In this document: piece by piece, positions 2,628 to 37,900 of the stretch | Numbering within the stretch: the first letter of the stretch is position 1 | How the letters are laid out: every line of letters begins with the position of its first letter | Source: Nitrospinota bacterium | GTDB taxonomy: Bacteria > UBA8248 | Direction of reading: 5' to 3' | Assembly (NCBI GenBank): GCA_030754595.1 | Contig: JASLZZ010000109.1 | Location: 28,226 to 92,225, forward strand | DNA length: 64,000 nt | Position numbers and translations under genes: made by a program | The notes under the pieces: model-generated | Databases searched by the model: none | Told to the model about the DNA's origin: nothing | The model's input: only the letters and a program-made list of their open reading frames with translations

Positions 2628-2667
2628 CGCCCCTCCCGGTGAGAGACCGGGAGGGGCGATTTTTTTT
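2628..2667 (+). terminator. Rho-independent terminator between convergent genes
   Basis: CGCCCCTCCCGGT-GAGAG-ACCGGGAGGGGCG 13-bp perfect stem followed by T8. Confidence 0.85.
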
Positions 2668-2677
2668 ATTTAACTGC

Positions 2678-3235
2678 CTACTTCAACCCCGGCAGATCGA
2701 CCGGGCAAAATTCGTTGATTTCCGTCCGGAGGGCGCCGTTGAACTTGGCGTTGAAATTCTGATAGGCGGCGAAAACGCTGATCTCGACGATGGCGGGGGT
2801 GTTGTAGTGCGCCTTGAGGGCGTCGAACACCGCGTCCGGCACGTCCACCGGGGTTTTCGTCATGCCCTCGGTGTAGGCGAGGGCGGCGCGCTCGGCTTCC
2901 GTAAACTCGGGTCGCCCGGCGTAATCGAGTATCGCGGCGAGTTTATCCTCCGAATGCCCGGCGCGGAGACTCCGCGCCGAATGGAGGTCCACTCAATGGG
3001 GGCACTGGTTCAGGCGCGAAACCAGGAGGGTGATCAGCGGCTTCAGCGAGGCGGGCGCGAAATCGGTCTCCGCCTGCATCGCCTGCATCCCGGCGATGCC
3101 ATTGAGCAGGTCCGGGCAATGGCCGCGGACCCGGGTGGTGGTCATCGTCTTCCCGACGGCGGCTTTTTGGCCGTCGTAGATTTTTCGCACCTCGGGGGGC
3201 GCGTCGTCGTATTCGAGAAACGGAACGCGGGCCAA
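2678..3235 (-). CDS. AhpD/CMD-like putative selenoprotein (CPHU, 185 aa, Sec at codon 81, TGA 2993-2995)
   Basis: ORFs 2993-3235 and 2678-2992 are contiguous and in frame: LVSRLNQCPH-TGA-VDLH matches AhpD S-x2-N-x-CxxC-x3-H; RBS AAGGAG before TTG; downstream hairpin. Confidence 0.85.
2959..2979 (-). promoter_or_regulatory. Putative bacterial SECIS element
   Basis: 13 nt after UGA: CGGCGCGG-AGUCU-CCGCGCCG, plus a possible lower CCUCC/GGAGG stem. Confidence 0.7.
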
Positions 3236-3279: not shown

Positions 3280-4092
3280 TTATGCGGCCTCGGGCGCCCG
3301 GTTTGCGACAAAGGCCTCGATGGCCGATGTCGTCTCGTCGGAGGCCTCCAGGCTGATCAGGTGACCCACTCCGGGGACATCGATCTTGGCCGCGCCTTCG
3401 ATTTTGCCGGCCAGCTCGTCGGCGCAGGCGTGAAAACCCGCGTGATCGCGCTCCCCGACCAAAATCCGCGTCCGTGCCTTGATGGCGGGGGCCGCGTCGC
3501 CCAGGGAGGGGTCCCTCGGCGACTCGTTGTCGAGCCAGTGAGCGCCGGTGTAGGAGAGCATCATCTGATCGATTTTCGCGGCCACTTCCTCGTTTTCAAG
3601 CGCGGGCGCGAAAACCGGGAGCGAAAGCCACTTTTCCTTCGCCGCCCGGAGACCCTCGGCCCGGAGCGTCGCCATGACCTCGAGACCCTGGTCAACGAAT
3701 TCGGGCATGAGCCGGGCCTGATCGAAACTGGGACACATCGCGAAGACCGAGGCGGTCTTGTCCGGATGCGCGGCGGCGAAGCTCAGTGCGATCCCCGCTC
3801 CCCGGCTCAACCCGACGAAATGGGCCCTCGAAGCCTTCACGACCTCGAGCAGGTCATGGAGATCCTTGACCTCTTCTTCCCGGGCGTAGCCCGTGGCCGG
3901 TTTCTCGGACCGGCCGCAACCCCGAAGATCGTAGGTGACGATCCGGTTCGCGCTCCGGAGGGCTTGTTTTTGTTTGTCCCAAAACGAGCGGTTCAGGGTG
4001 TGGCCATGAATAAACACAATGGGAGTTTTGCTGGAGCCAAATTCGGTGTCGTCGAACGCGATTTGAATTCCGTTGCAAACAGCTTGCGCCAC
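3280..4092 (-). CDS. Alpha/beta hydrolase (enol-lactonase-like)
   Basis: FIHG, YDLRGCG, GLSRG nucleophile elbow, VGERD and C-terminal GH. Confidence 0.9.
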   Translation of the reverse strand: MAQAVCNGIQIAFDDTEFGSSKTPIVFIHGHTLNRSFWDKQKQALRSANRIVTYDLRGCGRSEKPATGYAREEEVKDLHDLLEVVKASRAHFVGLSRGAGIALSFAAAHPDKTASVFAMCPSFDQARLMPEFVDQGLEVMATLRAEGLRAAKEKWLSLPVFAPALENEEVAAKIDQMMLSYTGAHWLDNESPRDPSLGDAAPAIKARTRILVGERDHAGFHACADELAGKIEGAAKIDVPGVGHLISLEASDETTSAIEAFVANRAPEAA

Positions 4093-4279: not shown

Positions 4280-4471
4280 TTACTCCTCAAACGGAGCCGG
4301 CTCTTCTTCCTCGCCCGTTTCATCCACCAAATCCACCAGCCCGCACTCCCCGCAGGAGATCAGAATATTCTCCATCGGAATCCCCCGCGACTCCTCCTGG
4401 CGGATCCATTCCCTGAGCCGCTGCGTCAATGTCTCCTGCTCTTCCCGGGTCAATCGAGGTTCTTGCGGCAT
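4280..4471 (-). CDS. Small acidic protein with CxxC (CGEC)
   Basis: 63-aa ORF with GGGAG RBS directly downstream of the AhpD-like pair. Confidence 0.6.
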   Translation of the reverse strand: MPQEPRLTREEQETLTQRLREWIRQEESRGIPMENILISCGECGLVDLVDETGEEEEPAPFEE

Positions 4472-4504
4472 CGGACAATCTCCCTGATGAAGAGAAGAAT
4501 AAAA

Positions 4505-5104
4505 CTACCCGCTCACCTTGGAGCCATGGATTTTCCCGGACTCCTCCTGCGATACAGGATTCCCCTCGGGGTCGTGCATGGGGAACGCCTTCAGGGTCCG
4601 CATGAAAACCTGCATGCCGTAATGGAGGGCTATGAAGCCCCCGAGCTCCATGATCTGCGCCTCGCTGAAGTGTTTTTTGCCCTCATCGTAGAATTCCTTG
4701 TTCACCTTTCCCGGCTCCCGGTACATCGTATGCGCGTAGCGGAGCGCCCATTTCTCGGCAGGGGTGAAACCCGCGTCGTTCTCGAAATCGCCCGAGCCCG
4801 CCTCGATGCGCTCCTCCGTCAAACCTTCGCGCAAAGCCTTCCCGGAGCGCAGGTTGGCGAAGTAGGTGTCCTCTGCCTTACGGGCGAGTTGGACGCGGAT
4901 GATCTCCTTTAACTTGTGATCGACGCCCCCCTCGGCATGGGAGATGTGCATGGCATCGTGAAGCGCCTTAGCGTAGCCGGGCGCGCGGGCGAGTATCCAC
5001 ACGAATAGCGCGTCGGGCGCGCCCACCTCCTCGCAGCGGCCCAGTATTTTCCCGAAACCCTTTTCCTCGATCTGATCTTCGGGCAATGGCTCGATGACGG
5101 GCAT
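4505..5104 (-). CDS. AhpD/CMD-like protein lacking redox Cys/Sec (DTYF in place of CNYU)
   Basis: ATG 5104, 4 nt after the upstream stop; shares VDHKLKEIIRVQL with the upstream gene; AEKWALRYA and AQIMELG AhpD-like helices. Confidence 0.85.
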   Translation of the reverse strand: MPVIEPLPEDQIEEKGFGKILGRCEEVGAPDALFVWILARAPGYAKALHDAMHISHAEGGVDHKLKEIIRVQLARKAEDTYFANLRSGKALREGLTEERIEAGSGDFENDAGFTPAEKWALRYAHTMYREPGKVNKEFYDEGKKHFSEAQIMELGGFIALHYGMQVFMRTLKAFPMHDPEGNPVSQEESGKIHGSKVSG

Positions 5105-5108
5105 GGCC

Positions 5109-5762
5109 TCATTCCCCCTCATCGGCGGCGAGGGCCCGGGCGCGCCCAAGCGGCCCGCTGATGTGCGAGACCGGCCGTGAGCCGTAAATTTCCCGGGATT
5201 CCTCCTGGCTCACCAGGCGGCCGTCCGGCGAGAACATGGGATAGAAATCGAGCGTCCTGAAAAACGTGTGATACCCCACGTTGAAACCGATGAAGGCGCC
5301 GAGCTCGACGATCTCCGCGTCGGAATAATGTACGCGCAACCGCCCGTAGAAAGCCTCGTCGATTTTCTCCGGCTCGAACTGCATCAGCTCGCTGTACTCG
5401 AGAGCGATTTTCTCGGCGGCGCCAAACTTGTCGCTCTCCCGCCAGTTCTCGATCCCCTCGTCGATCAACTCCTCGGTGAGTCCGTCCCGCTTCGCCGAAG
5501 CGGATCGCACGTTGCCTCAGTAGTTGCAGTCGGCCGCCCGGGAGAGCTGGACCCGGATGATCTCCTTGAGCTTGTGATCGACGGCCCCGGTGTTGAAGAC
5601 CGCCCCCCAGGCGATATACATCGCCTTTGAAAGATCCTCGTTATGACCCTGCATGGCGTGAAAGGCCGGATCGGGAGCCCGGTGCTTGAGGCATTTGTTC
5701 ACGAACGGCCCGAGTTTTGTTTTCTTTAAATCCTCGATGTCGAGCATGCTGATATTTGGCAC
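5109..5762 (-). CDS. AhpD/CMD-like putative selenoprotein (CNYU, 217 aa, Sec at codon 82, TGA 5517-5519)
   Basis: GTG 5762 with AAGGAG RBS; QLSRAADCNY-TGA-GNVRSASAK continues in frame into ORF 5109-5510; colinear with the uninterrupted neighbouring paralogue. Confidence 0.85.
5485..5504 (-). promoter_or_regulatory. Putative bacterial SECIS element
   Basis: 12 nt after UGA: UCCGCUUC-GGC-GAAGCGGG. Confidence 0.65.
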
Positions 5763-6067
5763 CGTGGTCTCCTTTAAATCTGGTGCGGTTTATCGAACGA
5801 TGTGCGATTTCCCTCAATCCACCGGGTTTCATTCTTCAGGCTCCGCTCTTCGGTCAGAATGAGCGGCGGCGCTATCCCTGGCTTCCGCTCCCGAGCTTGC
5901 GGATGAGGGCGAGGAGCGTCTCCTTCTCCTCCGTGGTGAGATTCTCCATCATTTCGGCGTTGATCTCCAAAACGTCCGCGTAGCTGCTCACCAAACCCGC
6001 CTCGCATGCAAACCACCCCCCGGAGGGAGGGAGGTGCGATCAGCGGAAATCAGCGGGGCAGGGGGGA

Positions 6068-7438
6068 TTATCCCTCGGCCTGGAACTTTTTAAGCCCGGT
6101 GTCGATGGCGGAGACGATTGTCGCGCCCTGCTCTTCGGTCAATATGAGCGGCGGGGAAATGGTGAGCGTGTTCGAGGGCCCGTCGGCGATGCCGGCGTTC
6201 TTTCCGATGAGGACCCCCTCCTCCTTGACGTAGGACAGGACCTTCGCCGTCCCCTCGGTCGGAAGCGGGTCGCCGTTCTCCTCGATGAGTTCGACGCCCC
6301 AGATGAGCCCCACCCCCCGGACATCCCCCACACAGGGAATGTCTTTCAGATGGGCCAGCGCCTCGCCCAGGCCTTTTCCGACATCCCGCGCGTTTTGCGT
6401 CAGATTCTCCTCCAGCAGAATTTCGAGATTTTTGTTCGCAGCGGCGCACGATGCCGGGTGGCCTCCGTAGGTGTTGATTTGCTGGAAGCCCGCCTCGCCC
6501 TCGGCGTTGAGCACCTGGAACACTTCGTCCGTCACCGCCGTCGCGCCGATGGGCAGGTATCCGCTACTGAGCCCCTTGGCCATCGTCATCACGTCGGGCT
6601 TCACGCCGTAAAGGTCCGAGGCGAAGAGCTCGCCCGTGCGGCCAAAGCCGGTGATCACTTCGTCGATGATCATGAGCACCCCGTAGCGGGTGCAGACTTC
6701 CCGCATTTTCTTCAGATAGTCCGCCGGGGGGGGGATCACACCCCCGCCGCCGATAATCGGCTCGGCGATGAAGGCGGCGACGGTATCGGCGCCCTGGTAG
6801 CGGATCACGGCGTCGAGATCTTCGGCCAGCCGCTCGGCGAGGTCGAACTCGCTCGAACATCCGCTGCGGTAGAAATAGGGCGCCTGGAGGTGGACTACGC
6901 CCGGAAGGAGGGGCTCGAAGGGCGCGCGGCGGGCGGTCTGGCCGGTCAGGCTGGCGCCGCCGATGGTGCCGCCGTGATAGCCCTGATACCGGGCGATGAT
7001 CTTGTAGCGCCCGCCCTGTGTCCGGCCCCAGGCCCGGGCGATTTTGATGGCGGTGTCCACGGCCTCGGAGCCCGAGTTCACGAACCAGATGCGATCGAGG
7101 TCGCCGGGCAGAATGTCTCCGAGCTGGTCGGCGAGCCGAGCCGCCGGGAGGTTGATCTGGCTTAGCGGGTAGTAGGGAAGTTCGAGTAGCTGACGATAGA
7201 CCGCCTCGGCGACTTCCTTGCGCCCGTAGCCGATGTTGACGCACCAAAGGCCCGCCATCGCGTCGAGGTATTCCCGGCCCTCGCCGTCGGTGACGGTGCA
7301 GCCGTCGGCCTTGACGATGACGCCGAGCGGGTTCTCGTCGAGCGTGTTGTGATTGAGAAACGGGTGCCAGACGTGGTCCTTGTCGAGGTCGCGGATTTTC
7401 TGAATGTCCTCGCCCACTGCCGCGATTTCCGAATTCAT
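6068..7438 (-). CDS. Class III PLP aminotransferase (omega-amine/taurine/putrescine type)
   Basis: YLDAMAGLWCVNIGYG, NSGSEA, GYHG, FIAEPI, DEVITGFGRTG, TMAKGLSSGY. Confidence 0.95.
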   Translation of the reverse strand: MNSEIAAVGEDIQKIRDLDKDHVWHPFLNHNTLDENPLGVIVKADGCTVTDGEGREYLDAMAGLWCVNIGYGRKEVAEAVYRQLLELPYYPLSQINLPAARLADQLGDILPGDLDRIWFVNSGSEAVDTAIKIARAWGRTQGGRYKIIARYQGYHGGTIGGASLTGQTARRAPFEPLLPGVVHLQAPYFYRSGCSSEFDLAERLAEDLDAVIRYQGADTVAAFIAEPIIGGGGVIPPPADYLKKMREVCTRYGVLMIIDEVITGFGRTGELFASDLYGVKPDVMTMAKGLSSGYLPIGATAVTDEVFQVLNAEGEAGFQQINTYGGHPASCAAANKNLEILLEENLTQNARDVGKGLGEALAHLKDIPCVGDVRGVGLIWGVELIEENGDPLPTEGTAKVLSYVKEEGVLIGKNAGIADGPSNTLTISPPLILTEEQGATIVSAIDTGLKKFQAEG

Positions 7439-7487
7439 GGTTTTCTCTCCTTGAAGCACCGGGGCTGTTCCCTCGAAACCGCTTCGC

Positions 7488-11775: not shown

Positions 11776-12327
11776 CTACGGTTTTCCCGTCAGGTTTCGC
11801 TTCACCTGGGGCGCAGCGGCGGCGGCGCGGACCGCGATCTCATCGTCCGAGATGGTGCTCAAAGGGTGCTCGATTACAACCGGATCGATGTCCTCCATCC
11901 CGAGCGCGGCGCGCTGGACATGGGCCTCGTGCAGAAAGGTCTCGGTGACGATCACCGCTGTAGGGACGCCGAGTTGTTCGAGGTATACGCCGTCGTGCAT
12001 ACAGCACGATGTGCACGAGCCTCAATCGCCGATGGCGGTGACGACGACATCGCTCTCGGCGGCGATTCGGCCGATTAACTCGGGCGCGGCGTTTTTCGAA
12101 AAACTCTCCTTTTTATAGAACGTCACCTCGCCCATCTCCTCCTCGGCCGCGAGAAGAGAGAGCGTCTTTTCTAGAAACCGCCTGCCGTTCCACTTTGTGT
12201 TGTCGAGGACGCCTACCCTGAGCCCTTCGAGAGAACCCGCCCTGGCAGCGATGGGACGCGCCTCGGCCTCGACCGCGCCGCGCGGGTCGTAGACTCTTTG
12301 TCCCGGGGTGTTCATCAAAGTGTTCAT
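11776..12327 (-). CDS. UGSC-family putative selenoprotein (183 aa, Sec at codon 102, TGA 12022-12024)
   Basis: AAGGAGG RBS; VVTAIGD-TGA-GSCTSCCMHDGVYLEQLGVP is in frame with ORF 11776-12000; U-G-S-C motif. Confidence 0.88.
11993..12009 (-). promoter_or_regulatory. Putative bacterial SECIS element
   Basis: 12 nt after UGA: UCGUGC-UGUAU-GCACGA. Confidence 0.6.
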
Positions 12328-37345: not shown

Positions 37346-37900
37346 ATGCCCCGCGTCCCCGAACTGCCCGACACACCCGATGACCCTCTCGCGAGGGAAC
37401 TCTTCGCGCACCAGATCGAAAACGACGGTTTCGTATTCAACCCTTCGAGGGTCCTCGGCCACCGGCCCAGCATCTTGCGCGGGATCGGCCAGCTCCAGCG
37501 GGGGGTGAACGAGTCGGGCCTGCTCGGCGGAGACCTCAAGGCCCTCGTCAACGTGCGCGTCGCCTCGATCAACGGGTGCCCGTTCTGAATGGACATCCAT
37601 TCGTCCCGTGGGATGAAAGAAGGCGTCACGCTCGATAAGATCGCGGCGCTCGACAGCTACGCCACCGACCCGCGCTTCACCGCCCGAGAGCGCGCCGCGA
37701 TCAATTTCGCCGAGCGGATGACGCGGACCGATCTCGACGTGACCGACGCGGCCTTTGCGGCGGCGCGGGAGGAGTTCAGCGTCGAGGAAATGGTAGAGCT
37801 GGCCGGGGTGATCGCGCTCGAGAATTTCCGCTCGAAGTTCAACAACGCCTTCCGCATCGAGGCCCAGGGTTTTTGCGCCATTCCGGAAAAGAAAGGATAG
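37346..37900 (+). CDS. AhpD/CMD-like putative selenoprotein (CPFU, 184 aa, Sec at codon 81, TGA 37586-37588)
   Basis: AAGGAG RBS; RVASINGCPF-TGA-MDIH contiguous in frame; homologous along its length to 2678-3235. Confidence 0.87.
37600..37617 (+). promoter_or_regulatory. Putative bacterial SECIS element
   Basis: 11 nt after UGA: UUCGUCC-CGUG-GGAUGAA. Confidence 0.6.

Follow-up and report, generated by a model that had tools for sequence, protein, structure and literature searches.

The window analysed here is a 64,000-nucleotide (nt) stretch of DNA from a Nitrospinota bacterium (assembly GCA_030754595.1, contig JASLZZ010000109.1, positions 28,226 to 92,225 of the forward strand). Two adjacent genes on its minus strand, hereafter gene A and gene B, encode paralogous proteins of the CMD/AhpD superfamily. 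Gene A carries an in-frame TGA that is interpreted as a selenocysteine (Sec) codon, and gene B lacks the redox residues of the corresponding site. In an original prediction made from the DNA letters, the two proteins and a 63-amino-acid (aa) protein encoded downstream were proposed to form an undescribed heteromeric selenoenzyme. The sequences and coordinates given there for gene A, gene B and the 63-aa open reading frame (ORF) were all recovered in the window, as follows:

5762..5109, minus strand: gene A, a 217-aa CMD/AhpD-like selenoprotein with a GTG start and a TGA stop at 5111..5109
5519..5517, minus strand: the in-frame TGA of gene A at residue 82, read as Sec
5503..5487, minus strand: hairpin CCGCUUC-GGC-GAAGCGG, similar to a Sec insertion sequence (SECIS), beginning 13 nt past the UGA and found by folding
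5104..4505, minus strand: gene B, a 199-aa paralogue of A with an ATG start at 5104, 4 nt past the stop of A
4471..4280, minus strand: the 63-aa ORF, with one CGEC motif

Conservation of the A-B pair and decoding of its UGA

A profile built from 29 B sequences was run against 185,579 genomes, one per species. The scan gave 235 B relatives, and the best 80 loci were examined. Directly upstream of B, 79 of these have an A gene with the motif C-x-x-TGA-G-N-V-R-S, in which Sec is always residue 82; the 80th (L080) is uninformative because its contig ends 100 nt before B. According to the record titles, the carriers belong to Nitrospinota, Tectomicrobia, Rhodospirillales, other Alphaproteobacteria (Defluviicoccus), Betaproteobacteria/Burkholderiales, Acidimicrobiia, and SAR324. 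The distance from the stop of A to the start of B was determined in 76 loci: the genes overlap in 15, are 0-20 nt apart in 44, 21-50 nt apart in 8, and more than 50 nt apart in 9. In some Betaproteobacteria, the spacer measures 60-470 nt. The spacer of L059 (5530-5964) contains a short repeated sequence whose translation repeats ...CVYLRLSA....

In the phylum of the window, 43 of 51 genomes had a match. The pair was adjacent in 40 of these, with one TGA in A and none in B, and in one more it was cut by a contig end. The two remaining genomes (G007 and G009) have only an A-like gene and no neighbouring B. In the order of a betaproteobacterial carrier, 7 of the 301 sampled genomes matched, and all seven had the A-B pair with the TGA. 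The module is therefore patchy outside the phylum of the window and moves as a unit. Of the gene order that the original prediction put up for testing, the A-B part was thus found in every evaluable locus, in 40 of the 43 positive genomes of the phylum, and throughout the positive genomes of the proteobacterial order. The expectation that A and B would not occur independently was borne out in the 79 evaluable loci, although A-like Sec proteins stand without B in 2 of the 51 genomes. These solo proteins (L091, 2013-2582, plus strand; L092, from 2000, plus strand) are about 189 aa long and read C-S-Y-U-[KS]-N-V-R-S.

Readthrough of the TGA of gene A gives ...LKEIIRVQLSRAADCNYUGNVRS..., that is, VDHKLKEIIRVQLSRAADCNY-U-GNVRS around Sec, and the reading frame is open and conserved on both sides of the codon. 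The hairpin was aligned over 66 distinct sequences, namely the window and 65 loci of several phyla. One pair (columns 18-32) is CG in 33 sequences and UA in 33 and is broken in none. Four other pairs are invariant or nearly so despite falling on synonymous codon positions, and the codons beneath the stem are invariant. A possible seventh pair (19-31), omitted by the program, is G-G in 3 of the 66 rows, representing seven loci. The source genome encodes a tRNA-Sec with anticodon TCA, selB (364.5 bits; cut-off, 242), and selA (551.8 bits; cut-off, 268). Hence, gene A combines a UGA within CxxU, a SECIS-like hairpin, and a Sec-decoding genome, as expected of an AhpD-like selenoprotein. Given the compensated hairpin pair together with tRNA-Sec, selA, and selB, the internal UGA, correctly foreseen as such, is read here as the codon of Sec82.

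Two other readings of this codon were rejected. A true stop, or a pseudogene, is ruled out by the SECIS covariation, the Sec machinery, and the conserved downstream frame, and decoding as Trp is ruled out by the stop codon of A itself, which is TGA. Among the best 120 database relatives of A, most are gene calls of 119-151 aa that start just past the TGA. Seven show W at the Sec position, which looks like a gene-caller artefact because A itself ends on TGA. One relative among these 120 is a Cys form (P0207, C-V-F-C), and Cys occupies the Sec position in none of the 79 A loci.

The motif of gene A is E67-x11-C79-N-Y-U82-G-N-V-R86-S87. The Pfam CMD model (PF02627) matches A with 36.2 bits, above the gathering cut-off of 23, which places it in the superfamily. 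Two features of AhpD are present, namely the C-x-x-C/U redox pair (C79-N-Y-U82) and a Glu 12 residues ahead of the first Cys. This Glu (E67) is invariant in the A and B alignments; in Mycobacterium tuberculosis AhpD, the Glu at this place belongs to the proton relay. The third feature, a His four residues past the second Cys, is replaced by Arg86 in 79 of 79 A and 80 of 80 B proteins. C79, U82, and R86 of A align onto the Cys, Cys, and His of 2gmy and 2ijc, solved proteins with CxxC-x3-H, and D79, F82, and R86 of B align onto those of PA0269. On the basis of these alignments, Arg stands where His is expected in both proteins, as had been claimed.

This Arg is, however, not unique to the pair. 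An exhaustive search by profile gave 1442 relatives at E <= 0.001, and Cys-type proteins among the best 150 read C-E-Y-C-G-N-Q-R-S, C-G-Y-C-S-T-V-R-S, and similar. The Arg-Ser signature thus marks a wider CMD branch. A sizeable Cys-type group with C-E-[YF]-C-G-N-Q-R-S (200-320 aa) includes P0290, P0311, P0314, P0323, and P0331. No NCBIfam model names the Cys-type Arg-Ser branch above its cut-off; the best match for these relatives is NF053654, as it is for A (62.6; cut-off, 310) and B (38.8). TIGR01926 matches A with 34.2 against a cut-off of 81.8 and does not match B, and TIGR04030 gives A 16.7 against 233. A monomer model of an A homologue is all-helical, with a mediocre predicted local distance difference test (pLDDT) value of 73.

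Gene B reads VDHKLKEIIRVQLARKAEDTY-F-ANLRS, with LKEIIRVQLARKAEDTYFANLRS as the fuller stretch and D-T-Y-F-A-N-L-R-S as the motif. A and B are 41% identical (E = 6e-42) and align without an offset, so that their residue numbers coincide (C79/D79, U82/F82, and R86/R86). B retains E67, R70, R75, Y81, R86, and S87, and D79 and F82 replace Cys and Sec; the redox pair is therefore absent (D79-T-Y-F82). Residues invariant in both proteins are G59, L65, K66, E67, R70, L73, R75, Y81, R86, S87, and E117, and H63 is invariant in A and nearly so in B. The Pfam CMD score of B (19.8) lies under the cut-off of 23, yet B is a clear paralogue of A.

The substitutions in B are themselves conserved. D79 was found in 79 of 80 loci (L067 has Ala, A-P-Y-F), Y81-F82 in 80 of 80, and R86-S87 in 79 of 80 (L090 has R-L). 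B had 1226 database relatives at E <= 0.001. Among the best 120, the pattern D-x-Y-[FY]...R-S was present in 105 caught by pattern and in the others inspected, a few of which have C or S in place of Y/F; CxxC was found in none of the inspected relatives. The proposal that B orthologues carry D-x-x-F instead of CxxC is thus upheld, the exception in L067 also lacking CxxC.

The model of B (pLDDT 89.1) predicts an all-helical CMD/AhpD-type fold in its form of about 190 residues. In a Foldseek search, the best match of this model was Bmp8 (E 3.7e-06; template modelling (TM) score 0.69/0.73), and the probability was 1.00 for Bmp8, PA0269, 2prr, 2oyo, and 6k40; the TM score to 6k40, the AhpD of Deinococcus radiodurans, was 0.75/0.80. 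An ESM Atlas search with B returned unnamed CMD clusters only. The unusual tails noted earlier, PMFSPDGRLVSQEES and PMHDPEGNPVSQEES, are both present in the window's genes A and B. The shared tail occurs in 79 of 79 A proteins, but it is not universal in B: 43 of 76 B proteins have it, 32 do not, and masked bases obscure it in 1.

Since only the two redox residues are lost, the rest of the pocket is kept, and D79 and F82 are themselves conserved, B has the sequence pattern of a pseudo-enzyme subunit that has kept a structural or ligand-binding role, and not that of a decaying copy. A 181-aa database protein, P0167, is a hybrid whose first ~65 residues are A-like and which is B-like from LKEIIR onward (D-S-Y-F). 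It looks like a recombination deletion between the two paralogues or an assembly chimera.

Fusions, phylogeny and predicted complex

Fused forms of the pair were also found. In L052 (SAR324), A and B share a single 426-aa frame, which starts at the Met of A, reads across the TGA, and reaches B by way of a linker. In sixteen database proteins of 276-371 aa, 14 of them from the best 120 B matches and 2 from the A matches, the portion of A that follows Sec is joined to the whole of B by a low-complexity linker. A search for Cys-bearing fused forms of at least 350 aa gave two proteins, both truncated at the Sec site, which is weak evidence that such forms are absent.

A maximum-likelihood tree was built from 63 rows, comprising 30 A sequences, 30 B sequences, the 2 solo forms, and the window's classical AhpD-like gene as the outgroup. 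The A and B rows represent 28 of the 79 loci, picked for diversity, together with the window and both halves of L052. A forms one clade (Shimodaira-Hasegawa-like approximate likelihood ratio test (SH-aLRT) 97), B forms one clade (100), and the solo forms fall outside A and B combined (95). The lineage groups of the A clade are found again in the B clade, and the two are broadly congruent. The stem and tips of B are about two to three times longer. The root is uncertain because the outgroup branch is very long. As A and B each form one clade, an origin from one old duplication would fit these sequences, and the solo proteins, which branch outside A+B, may resemble the homodimeric ancestor.

A complex was modelled from P0126, an A homologue with 70% identity and W at the Sec position (5-row alignment), and the window's B (29-row alignment). 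The predicted complex reached an ipSAE score of 0.87 (0.88, 0.86, and 0.87 in separate runs), and the best of three controls scored 0.00. In calibration, the 0.87 mark was attained by 116 of 157 solved complexes and by 2 of 215 mismatched pairs. The runs share at least 95% of contacts, and the pLDDT of the partner is at least 84. The predicted interface is a pseudo-two-fold contact formed by the long C-terminal helices (about residues 143-167 with 147-172) and the segments just before positions 79. The A+B model, run with an A homologue, thus passed its controls; it supports A-B binding and does not prove it.

Neighbouring genes and environmental occurrence

The pair lies in a run of minus-strand genes. 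The other genes of this run and two further selenoprotein genes of the window are as follows:

7459..6068, minus strand: class-III aminotransferase, the first listed gene of the run that holds A-B
5988..5872, minus strand: short ORF between the aminotransferase and gene A, containing LTTEEKETLLALIRKLGSGSQG and conserved in 3 of 80 loci
4092..3280, minus strand: alpha/beta hydrolase between A-B and the classical Sec-AhpD gene, its best NCBIfam matches being the PcaD and PcaDC enol-lactonases, below cut-off
3235..2678, minus strand: the third AhpD-like gene of the run, a classical Sec form with C-P-H-U-V-D-L-H
11776-12327, minus strand: UGSC-family selenoprotein with an in-frame TGA (Pfam PF24696, 197.8 bits; NF041046, 158 against a cut-off of 125)
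about 37379-37819 (contig 65604-66044), plus strand: a further Sec AhpD-like gene with C-P-F-U-M-D-I-H

By a consensus scan, no terminator-like site occurs in the run until 2658..2628, the only strong one on the minus strand, after the third AhpD-like gene. A promoter scan gave no signal exceeding the shuffled expectation. The short ORF at 5988..5872 may be a remnant or a small lineage-specific gene. The third AhpD-like gene has a strong hairpin immediately past its UGA (-31 kcal/mol, z -3.17). In the whole genome, at least eight AhpD-like frames contain one in-frame TGA, i.e., at least seven besides A, and all the other Sec AhpD-like genes have a His near the motif. The arrangement of an alpha/beta hydrolase and a CMD gene is reminiscent of PcaD/PcaC.

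The 63-aa CGEC protein had been proposed as a third component of the enzyme. By tblastn, no more than 2 of the 80 loci have its gene. Of the 51 genomes of the phylum, 7 carry it; in G012 and G013 it lies on a contig other than that of A-B, and G042 has it without any A-B match. The protein as an A-B subunit was therefore rejected. It has no Pfam or NCBIfam match and shows 55-59% identity across genera; it is probably a real small protein and merely a local, lineage-specific neighbour.

Neighbours were counted by tblastn with the window genes and by Pfam on cluster members, because greedy clustering of the longest ORFs proved noisy in DNA this rich in GC, with an antisense artefact over A as its largest cluster. 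Among the 80 loci, a coenzyme A (CoA)-transferase III was found in 33, the class-III aminotransferase in 30 (upstream), and a FAH-family hydrolase in 23. The alpha/beta hydrolase was found in 27 at E <= 8e-18, and a 28th match (3e-04, upstream of A) was excluded. These conserved neighbours are confined to the Nitrospinota-like group, with the CoA-transferase also in some Rhodospirillales and two Betaproteobacteria. The Betaproteobacteria, other Alphaproteobacteria, Acidimicrobiia, and SAR324 have different neighbours. No peroxiredoxin gene adjoins A-B in the window.

Seawater and marine metagenomes from several studies contain the stretch. RNA-library contigs of 151-201 nt, from three libraries of two studies, match at >=99% within B (4508-4661 and 4680-4825) and A (5192-5432 and 5455-5602, the latter bridging the UGA). 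A fourth library, probably of DNA, covers 5461-5656. None of the RNA-library contigs covers the small ORF, the A-B junction, or the far ends of the stretch, which is uninformative either way with contigs. The RNA matches are a weak hint of A-B transcription, because DNA carry-over is not excluded.

Relation to known systems and interpretation

AhpD-like CxxU selenoproteins (COG2128/TIGR01926; Zhang and Gladyshev) were described from Sargasso Sea and Global Ocean Sampling (GOS) data (PMC1088965, PMC2398784; review PMC13188914). They are among the most frequent selenoproteins of ocean metagenomes, and AhpD-like 1 comprises 299 Sec and 902 Cys forms (PMC2398784). Gene A resembles them in its CMD/AhpD fold, C-x-x-U motif, SECIS just downstream, and marine origin. 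It differs in its score under the TIGR01926 cut-off and in the Arg in place of the relay His. The passages on these proteins in PMC1088965, PMC2398784, and PMC13188914 cover single genes, with no redox-dead partner.

Sestrins and bacterial 'alkyl hydroperoxidase' proteins are described as fused AhpD-like dimers with one cysteine-less domain (PMC11429811). L052 and the 16 fusion proteins have the same architecture, two AhpD-like domains of which one is without redox residues, and they are likened to these pseudo-dimers by architecture alone. In contrast to the pseudo-dimers as described there, A and B are mostly separate genes, as in the window, and the active half uses Sec. The dead half also differs: B has the D-x-Y-F...R-S motif, and the Sestrin-defining acidic DDYDY hinge, which takes the place of a second-domain helix, was not seen in B by eye. 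The arrangement had been put forward as undescribed. Our literature search, which left most subscription journals outside its reach, found no paper on the A-B pair, but the selenoprotein family and cysteine-less fused dimers are already known from the passages cited (PMC1088965, PMC2398784, PMC11429811).

Several characterised proteins and curated families invite comparison. The solved AhpD-like proteins PA0269 (2ijc/2o4d/7xw1), Atu0492 (2gmy), and 6k40 share the Glu-x11-Cys spacing and the position of C-x-x-C; 2o4d, 2prr, and 6k40 match the B model with Foldseek probability 1.00 and TM 0.61-0.80, and M. tuberculosis AhpD (1knc, 1gu9) is a weak fold match (TM about 0.5, E 0.17-0.29). Compared with AhpD, the relay His is Arg, no AhpC gene lies nearby, and a heteromer is proposed instead of a homo-oligomer. 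The debrominase Bmp8 (6ohi, 6ohj), a thiol-dependent reductive dehalogenase with the CMD fold, exemplifies non-peroxide thiol chemistry in this fold. It shares the ~190-residue form with B and matches A and B in sequence at 19-20% identity. Unlike the A-B pair, Bmp8 is a Cys enzyme of one chain type, and no halogenase or bmp-type genes lie near A-B. TIGR04029 and TIGR04030 stand for neighbouring CMD-domain genes, only one of which carries the redox motif. A scores far under the cut-off of TIGR04030, A and B both score far under that of NF053654, 'YciW-related (seleno)protein', and no curated model names the A-B pair.

Because of their strict co-occurrence, the fusions, the single clades, and the passing complex model, A and B belong together. 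We consider it probable that together they form one pseudo-symmetric enzyme of the CMD/AhpD fold, each contributing one of its two subunits, and that they arose by a single old duplication. The heteromer of a Sec subunit and a partner subunit put forward in the original prediction would thus stand, without the mini-protein. In the mechanism that we propose, a Sec-containing homodimer would have been duplicated once into A and B. A would carry the sole redox centre, Cys79-x-x-Sec82. The selenolate of Sec82 would attack an oxidised or electrophilic substrate, Cys79 would resolve the adduct as a selenenyl-sulfide, and an external thiol system would recycle the enzyme. Glu67 and Arg86 would occupy the places of the Glu...His proton relay of AhpD. 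B would probably be an obligatory dimer partner and possibly hold a non-catalytic binding site for an anionic ligand. What we infer from this evidence is that A and B physically bind each other in the cell and that a dimer has a single active site, as well as the cycle of catalysis and the type of substrate.

Several points weigh against this two-subunit enzyme. The existence of solo A-like Sec proteins in 2 of the 51 genomes of the phylum implies that the fold can work without B. The pairing counts come from the best 80 of 235 loci, and related genomes among them are not independent. Any two CMD paralogues would be expected to meet in a pseudo-two-fold helix-helix contact like the predicted one, and since homo-oligomers of the family have been solved, the passing score may come from likeness alone. 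Moreover, the score cannot tell A-B from A-A or B-B, and the first chain of the model was the 70%-identical homologue P0126 instead of the window's A. No peroxiredoxin, thioredoxin, or other redox partner was found among the conserved neighbours (28 annotated clusters), so that nothing there points to a substrate.

Some of these points bear on the alternatives. If A, with or without B, were a plain AhpD that recycles an AhpC-type peroxiredoxin via a lipoyl or thioredoxin donor, the replacement of His by Arg would be neutral. The fold and the E-x11-C-x-x-C/U geometry would suit such a protein, as would the seven or more other Sec AhpD-like genes of the genome. We nevertheless regard this as unlikely, as the relay His is Arg in every A and B protein read, no peroxiredoxin gene is among the conserved neighbours, and the match to TIGR00778 (the core domain of AhpD) reaches 18.9, under the cut-off of 27.8. 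Retention of Sec in 79 of 79 loci would also be unusual in a family in which Cys forms dominate (299 Sec versus 902 Cys forms in the data given in PMC2398784).

A and B could also be separate homo-oligomers that share an operon and act in the same pathway, A as an ordinary AhpD-type selenol/thiol reductase and B as a non-redox CMD protein. CMD proteins are usually homo-oligomers, with many identical chains per entry among the PDB relatives, and the generic nature of the predicted interface, the solo A-like proteins, and the conserved pocket that B keeps of its own agree with such an arrangement. It is quite unlikely in view of the fusions in SAR324 and in 16 database proteins, the co-occurrence in 79 of 79 loci with stop and start codons mostly overlapping or at most 20 nt apart, and the broad congruence of the A and B subclades. 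A catabolic enzyme acting on a carboxylated or CoA-bound small molecule together with the CoA-transferase, FAH hydrolase, aminotransferase, and PcaD-like hydrolase, as an echo of PcaC/PcaD (a CMD decarboxylase and an enol-lactonase), draws on the neighbour counts (33, 23, 30, and 27 of 80), the PcaD and PcaDC matches of the hydrolase (below cut-off), the same kind of hydrolase after one of the two solo A-like genes (G009; L092), and the invariance of R70, R75, and R86 in both subunits, but it is improbable, given that only the Nitrospinota-like group and some Rhodospirillales have these neighbours, other carriers having different ones, and that the strictly kept Cys-x-x-Sec argues for redox chemistry.

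Returning to the two-subunit enzyme, the strict Sec, the Arg in place of His, and the lack of a peroxiredoxin link leave room for chemistry other than peroxiredoxin recycling. A stronger proposal is that the pair is an obligate heterodimeric selenoenzyme, with a single Cys/Sec centre and a conserved pseudo-site, that truly needs selenium and acts on a non-peroxiredoxin substrate; it could reduce or dehalogenate either a small organic anion or a compound of sulfur, selenium, or arsenic. Such substrates would suit the three invariant arginines, the debrominase as the closest solved fold, and the marine hosts. A need for selenium would be in keeping with the single Cys form among the best 120 A relatives and its absence from the 79 loci. 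This proposal as a whole is, in our estimation, doubtful.

The A-B pair is a variant of the AhpD-like selenoprotein and of the AhpD-like pseudo-dimer, and not a new category. What it means for the family is that one widespread branch of the AhpD-like CxxU proteins probably consists of two chains, fused in some cases, a Sec half and a conserved pseudo-enzyme half. This make-up would change how the protein is expressed, assayed, and annotated; at present, most gene callers break A in two at the UGA and annotate B as 'hypothetical', and neither is named by a curated model. The pair may also be seen as a parallel, in bacteria and not yet fused, to the path by which Sestrins are proposed to have evolved. 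Because Sec is so strictly kept across phyla, the pair offers a clean case for what selenium does beyond sulfur. If the reading as a non-peroxiredoxin enzyme is true, one of the commoner selenoprotein types of the ocean would be a new enzyme class.

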